A DNA stretch of 64,000 bases from Steroidobacteraceae bacterium (GCA_046347195.1 JAXMGQ010000028.1:1-64000); one strand, 5' to 3'. Positions 27,474-39,897 are shown, counted from the stretch's first letter. Numbers and translations: made by a program. The notes: generated from the letters alone by a model not told the origin.

Positions 27474-28145
27474 TCAGGCGGTGGGCACCGGCAACACCGC
27501 CTCCTCCGCGATGACGAACACGCGATCGCCACGCGCGGCGCGGATGCTGGCGCCGCCCGTGAACCGGCCGAAGGCGGGCAGCACCGCGCGGCTTTCGGTG
27601 AACCAGAAAGCCGGCAGGCGTGCGTGATCGCCACTGGCCGAGGACAGTGACAGCACGGGATGCAGGTGGCCGCACAGATGGGGCCTCGCCGGGCTGCCGG
27701 CGCCGGGCGAGGGCTCGTCCTGGTGCACGAGGGTGAACGGGGGTTCGTGCAGGGGGCCATCGTGCCAGCGGATGCGCCGTGGCCACAGGCCCGCACCGCC
27801 GTGACGGTCATGGTTGCCCGTGACGATGTCGATGAGCAGCGCGGGATGCCGCTCCAGCCATGCCTCGAACCGGCCGAAGAACACCCCGCTCGCCGCCGGC
27901 GGGCCGTGCAGGAAGTCGCCGAGCACGACGAGCCGCTGGATCGCGTGTGCCTCTATCAGCTCCGACAGTCGGGTGAGGTCGTGCGCATCGATGCCCTCAG
28001 GAACCGGCATGCCGGCGCGCTGGAACACGCCCACCTTGCCGAAATGCGTGTCGGCGACGAGCAGCATGCGCCGGGCGGGCCAGATCACCGCGCGCTGTGC
28101 GCTCAGCAGCAGCTCTTCACCGGCCCAGTCGATCGCGAGACTCAT
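27474..28145 (-). CDS. pdeM: ligase-associated DNA damage response endonuclease PdeM (calcineurin-like metallophosphoesterase)
   Basis: Motifs LLVADTHFGK and …VVLGDFLHG…GNHDRH are present. ATG 28145 overlaps the helicase 3' end by 29 nt. Confidence 0.8.
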   Translation of the reverse strand: MSLAIDWAGEELLLSAQRAVIWPARRMLLVADTHFGKVGVFQRAGMPVPEGIDAHDLTRLSELIEAHAIQRLVVLGDFLHGPPAASGVFFGRFEAWLERHPALLIDIVTGNHDRHGGAGLWPRRIRWHDGPLHEPPFTLVHQDEPSPGAGSPARPHLCGHLHPVLSLSSASGDHARLPAFWFTESRAVLPAFGRFTGGASIRAARGDRVFVIAEEAVLPVPTA

Positions 28146-30585
28146 CGGCGGATTTTTCCAGATGCGCCGCCATGCGCGCAACGCGTTCCTTCCAGCTCTC
28201 GGAGGATATGACCTGGCTCTGCAGCCGCTCGGCCCACAGCGGGAAGGCCAGCGGTGAGATCTCCTCCGTGTCCACAACTACCAGTGGCAGCGTCTCGAGG
28301 CGGCGGAGGCAAGCCGCGAGCCGGCTGCCCTCGAGCTGCCGCGCCAGCACCTCGGCGCGCGCCTGGTCGAGCAGCCGGTTGGCCGGATCGAACTGCGTGA
28401 GCACATCGAAGATCAGCGCTGCGGAGGCCTGCACCTGGCGCTGCGAGCGGCCGCGTCCGGGCAGTCCCTGCTGGATGAGTCCCGCGATGCGCGCGATGTC
28501 CCGGAAGGCCCGCTTCGCCCCTTCGGAGACGTTGACGCAGGCCAGCAGGTCAGCCGCCAGGTCGCCGCGGCGCAGGTCCTGCGCAAGCGCTTCGGATTCG
28601 ATGAGGACATCGCGATCGCCGAGCAGTTCGAATCCGTAATCGTTGTACGACAGCGTGAAGGTCGAGGGGTTGCGCCGCCCGAGCCGCATGGCCAACAGGG
28701 TCGCGAGTCCTTCATGCGCAAGCCGCCCGGCGAAGGGAAACACGAACAGGTGCGAGCCTTCGCGGGTCCGCGTGCGTTCGATGAGCAGGGCGCCGGCGTG
28801 GGGGAGCTTCGACACCCGCTGCTGCAGTTCCAGGAGCGGCTTCATCAGCCGCACTTCCTCGCAAGGGTCCGGATCCTGCTGCCAGCGGGTGAACAGCTCG
28901 AGGGTGGCATCGGCGAGCTCGGTCGACAGCGGCATCCGTCCGCCCTGCCAGCGGGGTACGTTGCGCGTGCGCCGGGTCGCCGGCCGAACATAGGCCGTCA
29001 TGTCCTTCACCCGCGCCAGCGCCAGGCGGCGTCCGGCGAACAGGAACACGTCACCCTCGCGCAGCCGCGAGATGAAGGATTCCTCGATCGTGCCCAGCAC
29101 CCGGCCATTGAACCAGCGCACCTGCATCGATTCGTCCGAGCTGATGGTGCCTATCCCCAGGCGATGGGTGCGCGCGAGATGCGGGGCGGCGGCGACGTAG
29201 CGGCCATCGGCCTCGAGGCGGATGCGGTGGTACTGCGGATACGCGGCCAGGGCCGAGCCGCCGCGTTCCAGGAAGCCGATCGCCCAGCGCCAGTCCTCCT
29301 CGGCCAGAGCCGCGAACGCGTGTGTGTTGCGCACCTCGGCGAGCGTCGTTCCGGGTTCGAAGCCGGGTCCGCAGGCCAGGCTCATCAGGTGCTGGACCAG
29401 GACATCGAGGCTGTTGACGATGGGTTCGCGCGATTCGACCCGGCCGGCGGCGCAGGCCGCGCGGGCGCCCGCGATCTCCAGCAGTTCGAAGGCATGCGCC
29501 GGCAGACACAGCACGCGCGAGGTCACGCCGGGCTGGTGACCGCTGCGGCCGGCGCGCTGCATCAGGCGCGCCACGCCCTTCGGGCTGCCCACTTGGATGA
29601 CCTGGTCCACCGGCGAGAAGTCCACGCCCAGGTCCAGGGACGAGGTGCACACCACGCACTTGAGCTTGCCGCCCTTCAGCGCGGCCTCGATGCGCCGGCG
29701 CAGCGGCTGACCGATCGAGCCGTGGTGCAGCGCCACCTGCGTGAGCCAGTCGAGCCGCCGCTCCACGATGGCCTGGTACCAGATTTCCGCCTGCGAGCGG
29801 GTGTTGGTGAACAGCAGCGTGGTGCGTGAGGCCTCGATGGCGCGCAACGCAGGTTCGAGCAGGGCGAGGCCCAGGTGTCCCGACCAGCCGAAGCGCTCGA
29901 TCGAGGCCGGCAGGATGGAATCGACGATCACCTGCTTGGCGGCCGGCCCGCGGACCAGGCGTCCGTGTCGCGTCGGACCCAGCAGCACATCGCGCGCCTG
30001 CTCGAGGTTGCCGAGCGTGGCCGACAGGCCCCAGGTACGAAGCAAAGGGCTGTGCGCGCGCAGGTGCGCCAGGCACAGTTCGAGCTGCACGCCGCGCTTG
30101 CTGGCCATCAGCTCGCGCCATTCATCCACGATCACGCAACGCACCTGGCGAAGCTGCGTCGCCGTTTCCGCGGAGGACAGCAGTACCGACAGGCTCTCGG
30201 GTGTCGTGATCAAGCCTTGCGGCGGGTTCTCGCGCTGGCGCTTGCGCAGCGCCGAGTGGGTGTCACCGGTGCGAGCCTCGATGCGCCAGTCGAGGCCGCA
30301 GCCGCGCGTGATTTCGCGCAGCGAGGCGAGCGTGTCGGCGGCCAGTGCCCGCAAGGGGGTGAGCCACAGCACCGACAGTCCTGGCGAGGGTTGTTGCAAG
30401 TCCAGCGCCTCGAGCAACGGACCCAGCCACACGGCCAAGGTCTTGCCGCTGCCGGTGGGCGCGTGCAGCAGGCCCGATTCGCCGGCAAGGTAAGCATCGG
30501 CTACCTCACACTGGAAATCGAACAGCGACCAGCCGCGGCGAGCGAGCCAGGCCTCGACGCGCGGCAGCGCGCCGGCGGTGCTCAC
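28117..30585 (-). CDS. ligase-associated DNA damage response DEXH-box helicase (Lhr-core type)
   Basis: It has Walker A APTGSGKTLA, a DEWRE box and helicase C motifs, plus the Lhr-type C-terminal domain. The GTG start at 30585 overlaps the ligase stop (GTGA); the track ORF extends 129 codons further. Confidence 0.85.
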   Translation of the reverse strand: MSTAGALPRVEAWLARRGWSLFDFQCEVADAYLAGESGLLHAPTGSGKTLAVWLGPLLEALDLQQPSPGLSVLWLTPLRALAADTLASLREITRGCGLDWRIEARTGDTHSALRKRQRENPPQGLITTPESLSVLLSSAETATQLRQVRCVIVDEWRELMASKRGVQLELCLAHLRAHSPLLRTWGLSATLGNLEQARDVLLGPTRHGRLVRGPAAKQVIVDSILPASIERFGWSGHLGLALLEPALRAIEASRTTLLFTNTRSQAEIWYQAIVERRLDWLTQVALHHGSIGQPLRRRIEAALKGGKLKCVVCTSSLDLGVDFSPVDQVIQVGSPKGVARLMQRAGRSGHQPGVTSRVLCLPAHAFELLEIAGARAACAAGRVESREPIVNSLDVLVQHLMSLACGPGFEPGTTLAEVRNTHAFAALAEEDWRWAIGFLERGGSALAAYPQYHRIRLEADGRYVAAAPHLARTHRLGIGTISSDESMQVRWFNGRVLGTIEESFISRLREGDVFLFAGRRLALARVKDMTAYVRPATRRTRNVPRWQGGRMPLSTELADATLELFTRWQQDPDPCEEVRLMKPLLELQQRVSKLPHAGALLIERTRTREGSHLFVFPFAGRLAHEGLATLLAMRLGRRNPSTFTLSYNDYGFELLGDRDVLIESEALAQDLRRGDLAADLLACVNVSEGAKRAFRDIARIAGLIQQGLPGRGRSQRQVQASAALIFDVLTQFDPANRLLDQARAEVLARQLEGSRLAACLRRLETLPLVVVDTEEISPLAFPLWAERLQSQVISSESWKERVARMAAHLEKSADESRDRLGR

Positions 30586-38845: not shown

Positions 38846-38889
38846 ACCATGAGTGGCGGGGACGGTTGCATCGTTATGGCGCCGGATCT

Positions 38890-39897
38890 TCATCCTGCAA
38901 GCAGCGCATCGGCGAGTGGTCCCACGCCACCGCGCAGCGGATCGCAGACCGGCAGATCCAGTTCGGCCTCCAGCCGCCCACGATAGTCTCGCCATTGCTC
39001 CTCCGACAGGGTCGAGGAGTTGATCGACAGGCCGGTACAGCGGATGGCGCGGTTGGTCAGCCGGCCCGCGGCCAGGTAGGCCTCGATCACCTCCCGCAGC
39101 GGCGGGATGGGATAGTCGGGATACTCCTCGATGGTGACCCGCTCGGGTGCGTGGCACAGGATGATGGCATCGGGCTGCGAGCCATGCAGCAGGCCCAGCG
39201 TCACCGCCGCGTAGGCGGGGTGGAACAGCGAGCCCTGTCCTTCGATGACATCCCAATGCGTCGGGTCGTTGTCCGGCGACAGCGCCTCGGCCGCCCCCGC
39301 CAGGAAATCGGCCACCAGCGCGTCCATGGCGATACCGCTGCCTGCGATCATGATGCCGGTCTGGCCCGTCGCCCGGAAGGTGGCGGCACGGCCGCGATCC
39401 TGCAGGGCACGGGCGAGCGCGAGCGCCGTATATTTCTTTCCCAGCGCGCAGTCGGTACCCACGGTCAGCACCCGCCGGCCGCTGCGTCGACGGCCGCTGG
39501 CCACGGGGAACCGCGGATTCATGTGCCGCACGTCGATGAGCCGGGTGCCGCTGCGTTGCGCGGCCTGCACCAGGGCCGGGAACTCGGTGAGCCGCGTGTG
39601 CATGCCGCTGACCACGTCCAGGCCCGCGCCCAGGGCGGCTTCGAGGTCGGCTTGCCAGTGGGCCGGGAGCGATCCGCCGGTGGGCGCGACCCCGACGATG
39701 AGCGACCCCGAACCCCGGGCGGCAGCCTGTGCCGGTGACAGGCGGGGGATCCCCAGCGTCACCTTTCCTTCCGGGTGCGACCATTCGCCCAGCACGTCCG
39801 TCGGGCACCAGTCACGCAGGCCAAAGGCCGTCTTGCAGTCGGATTTCAGTGCGGCATCGCCCAGGTACAACAGGTAAGGTTTGCGCAAGACGAGCAT
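38890..39897 (-). CDS. DUF1611 domain protein (DgcN-like N-acetyltransferase family)
   Basis: Motifs …LTVGTDCALGKKYTALAL…FRATGQTGIMIAGSGI…WDVIEGQGSLFHPAYAAVTLGLLHGSQPDA… match DUF1611. The start at Met29 of the track ORF is supported by ATG 39897. Confidence 0.65.
   Translation of the reverse strand: MLVLRKPYLLYLGDAALKSDCKTAFGLRDWCPTDVLGEWSHPEGKVTLGIPRLSPAQAAARGSGSLIVGVAPTGGSLPAHWQADLEAALGAGLDVVSGMHTRLTEFPALVQAAQRSGTRLIDVRHMNPRFPVASGRRRSGRRVLTVGTDCALGKKYTALALARALQDRGRAATFRATGQTGIMIAGSGIAMDALVADFLAGAAEALSPDNDPTHWDVIEGQGSLFHPAYAAVTLGLLHGSQPDAIILCHAPERVTIEEYPDYPIPPLREVIEAYLAAGRLTNRAIRCTGLSINSSTLSEEQWRDYRGRLEAELDLPVCDPLRGGVGPLADALLAG

Follow-up and report, generated by a model that had tools for sequence, protein, structure and literature searches.

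A stretch of 64,000 nucleotides from a metagenome-assembled genome (MAG) of a Steroidobacteraceae bacterium (GCA_046347195.1, JAXMGQ010000028.1:1-64000), here called the window, carries six genes on the minus strand at 27474-39897. They encode a DUF1611 protein, a tandem UvrA, a predicted exonuclease (Exo), an ATP-dependent ligase (Lig), an Lhr-core helicase (Hel), and the metallophosphoesterase PdeM (also called MPE). The last four correspond to the set that NCBI names "ligase-associated DNA damage response" (LADR). A preliminary description of the window had regarded all six genes as one dedicated repair pathway led by the DUF1611 gene. In this study, we found that the arrangement is probably a lineage-specific juxtaposition of three independent modules, namely the Lig B operon, a stand-alone tandem UvrA gene, and an unrelated DUF1611 gene. 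In this MAG, the modules have possibly been fused into one transcript. The dedicated six-gene pathway was not borne out, as the linkage was absent from 80 tandem-UvrA loci and from 80 LADR loci, and LADR and DUF1611 were independently absent within the clade. The adjacency is a clade-specific gene-order variant and not evidence for a new repair pathway.

The linkage between uvrA and LADR was investigated beyond the close relatives in both directions. Species-representative genomes were scanned with the window UvrA, repaired for a frameshift described below, which gave 80 tandem-UvrA loci with 58-72% identity from Steroidobacteraceae, Burkholderiales, Bordetella, Rubrivivax, Nitrospirota, and others. 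At none of these 80 loci, 69 of which included at least 1.5 kb downstream of uvrA, did tblastn with the window proteins find LADR genes or DUF1611 at a distance of up to 10 kb from the tandem UvrA. The reverse scan of metagenomes with the window Exo gave 80 LADR loci with 56-66% identity. Most of them had Exo-Lig(-Hel-PdeM) in the usual order, and a UvrA-like match was found at 0 of the 80 (at least 1 kb upstream of Exo was available in 60). The conservation of the linkage, which the preliminary description had proposed to check by comparative genomics, thus held in five close lineages and failed in both sets of 80 loci.

The close lineages were found by exact-protein look-ups of the closest homologs. 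The order uvrA-Exo-Lig was common to five of them, the window, L001/L002, L167/L168, L169/L170, and L171, whose gene orders are given in Table 1 together with those of two relatives without LADR, L084 and L085. The Exo proteins of the clade were 68-72% identical to the window Exo, and the UvrA proteins were about 80% identical to that of the window where measured, two lineages being only partly sampled. More distant Steroidobacteraceae loci (72%) had flg-csrA-pilZ-uvrA only. A neighbour-joining tree of UvrA had the topology (L085,(L167,(WIN,(L084,L001)))), where WIN is the window, with 100% bootstrap. The surroundings of uvrA are a synteny mosaic among these relatives. The simplest history suggested by these gene orders would be one insertion of LADR between uvrA and PMT_2, with later loss in L084 and partial loss in L169, and a separate gain or loss of DUF1611, which is present in the window and L084 only. 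In the 603-4982 interval of L169, a two-gene LADR remnant (Exo and ligase) was observed between uvrA and PMT_2. Because the linkage of uvrA and LADR occurs in a single small clade and is not stable within it, the linkage is a weak functional hint only.

The six genes lie between two plus-strand genes, a convergent SPFH/Band-7 gene (25263-27458) and a divergent DUF6600 gene (39881-42397), as had been described. The G+C content was about 68-70% across 27474-39897, and a compositional break was absent. All of the junctions reported in the preliminary description were found again when read directly in the sequence (Table 1), and its family assignments agreed with the NCBIfam and Pfam matches of the LADR genes, UvrA, and DUF1611. 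Mobile-element borders of the LADR cassette were also looked for; flanking direct or inverted repeats were not found beyond the internal UvrA domain repeats, and no tRNA genes were found near the cassette.

The four LADR genes had been recognized as a known set, and this was correct. A cluster of four genes in the order Exo-Lig-Lhr-Core-MPE has been reported in Pseudomonas putida (PMC7826289), and MPE adjoins Lhr-core in 276 of 319 bacterial genomes (PMC8301817). The window cassette shares with this operon the four families, the order, the single strand, and the tight junctions, and all four proteins scored above the NCBIfam cut-offs (Table 1). The ligase has the three-domain architecture of Lig B, with the Pfam domains DNA_ligase_A_N, _M, and _C (DNA-binding, nucleotidyltransferase, and OB-fold domains) and the adenylation motif KWDG (KxDG). 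Exo has the motif HAHGDH and matches the beta-CASP nucleases CPSF73 and TTHA0252 weakly in the PDB. In the helicase, the Pfam domains DEAD, Helicase_C, WH_Lhr, and DEAD_assoc were found, and the equivalog model TIGR04121 was matched in full. PdeM aligned with 6nvo, the structure of P. putida MPE (E = 1e-41), and the residues His81 and His113, which are essential in the P. putida enzyme (PMC7826289), are conserved in the motifs GDFLH and GNHD. Judging from these families and their order, the Exo-ligase-helicase-PdeM cassette of the window is the published Lig B operon. A review of this operon describes Lhr-Core as a helicase of 3'-5' polarity, MPE as an endonuclease that depends on Mn and acts on single-strand DNA, and Exo as a predicted homolog of the crosslink-repair nuclease SNM1B/Apollo (PMC7470946). 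By analogy with the P. putida enzymes, the window helicase would unwind in the 3'-5' direction, PdeM would act as an endonuclease on single-strand DNA, the ligase would seal nicks, and Exo would be a putative SNM1/Apollo-like exonuclease. The window differs from the published operon in two respects. A tandem UvrA gene lies directly upstream and overlaps Exo by 4 nt, and motif II of the helicase is DEWR and not DEWH.

The tandem UvrA identity was likewise upheld by homolog searches, in which TIGR00630 and NF001503 were matched. The first of the two open reading frames (ORFs) in which the gene is found, ORF A, matched TIGR00630 over residues 12-950 with 1181 bits. The repaired protein has 1873 aa, and its best 120 matches were proteins of 1824-1899 aa with 70-80% identity and 100% coverage (99% in one). 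On these matches, the repaired UvrA is a member of a large tandem-UvrA family with lengths of about 1850 aa, for which the database annotation is excinuclease ABC subunit UvrA. To find a conserved neighbour, the flanking ORFs of about 85 loci were clustered, and the top cluster occurred at only 9 loci; the gene for the tandem UvrA usually stands alone. The window protein shares with its family two units per polypeptide, four Walker A motifs, four LSGGExQR signature motifs, and 12 CxxC pairs (three zinc modules per unit), all of which are intact. The fourth Walker B motif, CYVLDEPTIGLH, and the fourth H-loop, LLVIEHN, were read from the translation. Unlike its relatives, in which the gene is intact, the window copy is interrupted by a one-base insertion, and it also differs by five copies of a 12-nt repeat in a unit 1 loop. 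This (P)DGV repeat loop is variable among relatives.

Each unit was compared with canonical class I UvrA (2r6f, 3pih, and 3zqj) and aligned end to end, with E values of 1e-228 to 1e-251, and the ATPase and zinc motifs were kept. Unit 1 aligned with Bacillus stearothermophilus UvrA 2r6f over residues 20-956, including the insertion domain. It contained the PF17755 insertion domain (45 bits), and its PF17760 UvrB-binding domain was below threshold (21.4 bits, cut-off 23.3). The alignment of unit 2 with Thermotoga maritima UvrA 3pih comprised residues 4-288 and 364-903 and left out the insertion domain; PF17760 scored 96.6 bits after frame repair, and PF17755 was absent. Neither unit therefore has an above-cut-off PF17760 together with PF17755, and the window protein differs from the canonical homodimer in being a covalent tandem. 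It is thus a covalent asymmetric pseudo-dimer with four ABC ATPase sites. Since unit 2 keeps the full UvrB-binding domain, UvrB is suggested as the partner of the tandem UvrA. With class II UvrA (UvrA2, DrrC, and Ecm16), the window protein shares the position of an accessory paralog alongside nucleotide excision repair (NER), and it matched Deinococcus radiodurans UvrA2 (2vf7). However, class IIa UvrAs are without the UvrB-binding domain and the first zinc finger (PMC9328131), whereas unit 2 of the window has the full UvrB-binding domain and both units have all CxxC pairs.

The naming and annotation of this family were also examined. The label "class III UvrA" for tandem UvrA reportedly goes back to Goosen and Moolenaar in 2008. 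In the literature searched, we found nothing on "class III UvrA" or on LADR genes together with UvrA, and no paper on the uvrA-LADR arrangement, which the preliminary description had also not known as described. In another locus (L006, 9944-15556), the public entry P0251, an 877-aa "UvrA" whose annotated start is an ATC codon, was observed to correspond to the C-terminal half of an 1870-aa ORF that is itself uninterrupted. Many matches of 850-1040 aa without the insertion domain may be similar split or truncated calls. Public annotation at times splits an intact tandem UvrA in two halves, and database counts of tandem UvrA likely underestimate the true number.

The third module is the DUF1611 gene. 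The preliminary description had presented it as a DgcN-like leader of the cluster, and this was not sustained. The protein scored 434.1 bits on the NCBIfam model for DgcN (NF041892), under the cut-off of 480, and no partner racemase gene was found adjacent to it. Among the sampled relatives, only L084 has DUF1611 besides the window. Because the gene was gained or lost separately and is seen in these two lineages only, it does not lead a conserved operon; it is a neighbour and not a part of a conserved cluster. The 58-bp spacer between DUF1611 and uvrA contains a perfect 12-bp palindrome, CTGAACGTTCAG, at 38834-38845 directly upstream of the uvrA ATG, which occurs once in the window. The spacer showed neither a consensus promoter nor a consensus terminator. 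It was considered as an SOS or other operator and rejected, being unique to the window and not kept upstream of uvrA in relatives.

Although the preliminary description had reported one large UvrA ORF, we found that the gene is split into two ORFs in different frames, at 35253-38831 (1192 aa) and 33209-35356 (715 aa). The split is a +1 frameshift from one additional G at about 35273, in the sequence TGG CCG CGC CTC G GAC CGC TTC. In a DNA alignment, the extra G was missing in 8 of 8 relatives. It breaks the Pfam domain UvrA_inter, the UvrB-binding domain, at profile position 63/64, so that positions 1-63 close ORF A and 64-106 open the second ORF. When the extra G was deleted, an uninterrupted UvrA with UvrA_inter as a single domain was obtained. 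Programmed frameshifting is not credible because a slippery motif is absent (CGC CUC GGA CCG), and the extra base occurs in none of the 8 relatives. About 37 kb of the window could be compared with relatives, and the uvrA site was the sole true frameshift; a second frame change flagged near 45587 was a gene boundary, read through an antisense ORF of L084. General assembly noise was rejected on this basis, and the frameshift is an isolated lesion because the comparison showed no other. Its cause is either a recent mutation that inactivated the gene or a single assembly (consensus) error.

We investigated the transcription signals of the locus. A consensus scan of 27000-40500 found no sigma-70-like promoters, and terminator-like sites in this region occurred at the chance rate (4 against 3.9 expected), which made the scan uninformative. 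No consensus terminator was seen between uvrA and the LADR genes. A box, TGTGC(A/C)A(C/G)AAT, located 6-7 nt before the GTG of Exo, is conserved in L001, L167, and L171 and is absent in the window. A similar TAnAnT box lies 6-12 nt before the uvrA ATG in relatives. The boxes before uvrA and Exo look like promoters of leaderless or short-leader mRNAs. Because promoter-like boxes precede Exo in the relatives, the comparison suggests that LADR was once a separate transcription unit. In the window, this spacer has been lost, and LADR probably relies on read-through from uvrA for that reason. The preliminary description had further proposed that the genes are translationally coupled. This proposal had no basis other than the overlaps, and the frameshift stops ribosomes 2 kb before the start of Exo. 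A real frameshift would leave about 2 kb of untranslated mRNA ahead of Exo, which could have a polar effect, and the reading as translational coupling would then be undercut.

The course of events favored here would be as follows. In the common ancestor of the small Steroidobacteraceae clade, the LADR cassette would have been placed between uvrA and the PMT_2 glycosyltransferase gene, where it would still have had a spacer with a promoter of its own. The MAG studied here would have lost this spacer, leaving the GTGA overlap, and LADR would then be read through from uvrA. This would be a local operon fusion, with no sign of a conserved pathway. Several points weigh against such a juxtaposition. 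The promoter calls are consensus-like matches only. The uvrA-Exo spacer shrank in two independent events, which left 9 bp in L169/L170 and -4 in the window, and such double shrinkage would be the pattern expected from selection for co-expression. The same-strand adjacency of uvrA and Exo was kept in 5 of the 6 sampled clade lineages despite reshuffled surroundings. Finally, both modules handle DNA damage, and cooperation between them is plausible.

These points bear on the proposal of a dedicated pathway, in which the tandem UvrA would recognize the lesion, the LADR enzymes would unwind the DNA, process the ends, and ligate, and the whole would have been selected as one operon in the clade. 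The NCBIfam ligase model is named "cisplatin damage response", and cisplatin-type bulky lesions are classic substrates of UvrA. The predicted kinship of Exo with SNM1B/Apollo fits such a pathway, as do the adjacency and orientation kept in five lineages whose Exo proteins have diverged to 68-72% identity, and the tightening of the uvrA/Exo junction, where a gap of 76 or 64 bp was reduced to 9 bp and to an overlap of 4 nt. However, the linkage was found in none of the tandem-UvrA or LADR loci outside the clade, LADR was lost in L084, which is nested within the clade, and L169 retains just Exo and the ligase. LADR has its own promoter-like box in three relatives, the UvrB-binding domain of unit 2 indicates UvrB as the partner, the window uvrA is frameshifted while the LADR genes are intact, and DUF1611 occurs in two lineages only. 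We therefore consider a dedicated pathway unlikely. A related possibility is that this clade recruited the tandem UvrA to sense damage for the Lig B/LADR pathway, providing an excision-and-ligation route for bulky or crosslink lesions that is UvrC-independent or only partly NER-dependent. This recruitment appears more doubtful still; if it were true, the spacer series of 76, 9, and -4 bp would represent an operon fusion in progress.

Decay of the locus was also considered, in which a real, polar frameshift in uvrA and a helicase crippled by H157R would mark pseudogenes in the making. The frameshift is unique to the window, and with one true frameshift in about 37 kb, the assembly is not generally indel-prone. 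Residue 157 of the helicase (codon 30115-30117) is Arg, whereas motif II is DEWH or DEIH in 30 of 30 homologs from the fetched loci. The helicase is 100% identical to a deposited NCBI protein from a Steroidobacteraceae MAG (P0241), R157 included. With this substitution, ATP hydrolysis could be less well coupled to unwinding; alternatively, R157 could reflect a consensus error. On the other hand, where a MAG consensus has GG for G at one site, an assembly error or a minority variant can be the cause, and all four Walker A and four signature motifs of UvrA are intact. Apart from the frameshift and H157R, singleton deviations were no more frequent than in relatives. At invariant alignment columns, Exo, the ligase, and PdeM had zero singleton deviations and UvrA had one (T1611A), and the counts for these four proteins were equal to or below those of relatives. 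Decay of the locus is thus improbable, and we give it less credence than either form of a joint pathway.

An anti-phage defence island, suggested by the UvrA-like ATPases and Lhr-like helicases of MADS and BREX, is hardly credible: in PADLOC, both UvrA units matched mad3 and mad8 (97-276 bits) and the helicase matched BrxHI and SngC (130-216 bits), but the same proteins scored 4-5 times higher on repair models (1040 to 1200 bits), 4 of 7 proteins (ligase, Exo, PdeM, and DUF1611) had no PADLOC match, no methyltransferase or other MADS/BREX component was adjacent, and the locus is flanked by a flagellar cluster, csrA, and methylmalonyl-CoA mutase, which are chromosomal housekeeping genes. The reading as a defence system was rejected, since the PADLOC matches are generic ATPase and helicase matches only and the neighbours are housekeeping genes. 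The mad3 and mad8 matches do show that UvrA-type ABC ATPases have relatives in defence systems.

Table 1. Features of the tandem uvrA-LADR locus in the window and at related loci. Coordinates refer to the window unless a locus is named.
Feature	Location	Strand	Description
PdeM/MPE metallophosphoesterase	27474-28145	-	TIGR04123, 187.5 bits (cut-off 150)
Helicase/PdeM junction		-	29-nt overlap
Lhr-core helicase	28117-30585	-	822 aa; TIGR04121, 1039.8 bits (cut-off 850)
Ligase/helicase junction		-	GTGA overlap
ATP-dependent ligase, Lig B type	30582-32207	-	NF006701, 687 bits (cut-off 543); TIGR04120, 607.6 bits (cut-off 400)
Exo/ligase junction		-	TGA and GTG abutting
LADR exonuclease Exo	32208-33212	-	Metallo-beta-lactamase/beta-CASP type; TIGR04122, 467.6 bits (cut-off 325)
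uvrA/Exo junction		-	GTGA overlap, 4 nt
Tandem UvrA continuation, other frame	33209-35272	-	Remainder of unit 2; ends in GTGA overlap with Exo
Frameshift site	35272-35274	-	Extra G (CTC G GAC) within UvrB-binding domain of unit 2
Tandem UvrA ORF A	35253-38831	-	Complete unit 1 and N-terminal part of unit 2; premature TGA
Tandem repeat, 12 nt x 5	37528-37587	-	Inside UvrA unit 1; encodes (P)DGV repeats, DGPPDGVPDGVPYGVP
DUF1611/uvrA junction	38832-38889	-	58-bp spacer
DUF1611 gene	38890-39897	-	335 aa from ATG at 39897; Pfam DUF1611_N and DUF1611
uvrA-Exo spacer, L001	L001, 9691-9754		With -10-like box
uvrA-Exo spacer, L167	L167, 9925-10000		With -10-like box
uvrA-Exo spacer, L171	L171, 2686-2761		With -10-like box
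Gene order, L001/L002			DUF6600(-), uvrA, 64-bp gap, Exo-Lig-Hel-PdeM, PMT_2
Gene order, L167/L168 (GCA_044226865.1)			uvrA, 76-bp gap, Exo-Lig-Hel-PdeM, SnoaL, M48(-), YbjQ(-), PMT_2
Gene order, L171			uvrA, 76-bp gap, Exo-Lig-Hel-PdeM, SnoaL, M48(-); locus ends after M48
Gene order, L169/L170			uvrA C-terminus, 9-bp gap, Exo-Lig, then PMT_2; without helicase and PdeM
Gene order, L084			flg...csrA-pilZ, DUF6600(-), DUF1611, uvrA, then opposite-strand hydrolase; without LADR
Gene order, L085			DUF6600(-), uvrA, PMT_2; without LADR and DUF1611

Other genes of the window were also examined. A plus-strand block at 22025-27458 encodes a YbjQ-domain protein, an M48 peptidase, and the 731-aa SPFH protein and separates PdeM from the PMT_2 gene. 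In relatives, L167 has the YbjQ and M48 genes and L001 has none of the block, which marks it as another indel hot spot. The SPFH gene has an internal 189-nt repeat at 25719-26126. On the other side, the DUF6600 gene (838-aa protein) contains tandem repeats at 42017-42277 with periods of 15, 45, and 51 nt, which encode a repetitive C-terminus rich in Gln, Arg, and Glu. At 16021-19806, we found a gene, syntenic with L169, for an IcmF-like protein of 1261 aa in which a B12-binding domain, a MeaB GTPase, and a methylmalonyl-CoA-mutase domain are fused.

For further use, the uvrA of this MAG is best treated as frameshifted. A conserved linkage would have hinted at the substrate of LADR, namely UvrA-type bulky lesions, and at a testable pathway. 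The clade itself supplies natural genomes with LADR (L167 and L171) and without it (L084 and L085). Within this clade, the adjacency of uvrA and LADR is a reasonable lead for targeted work.

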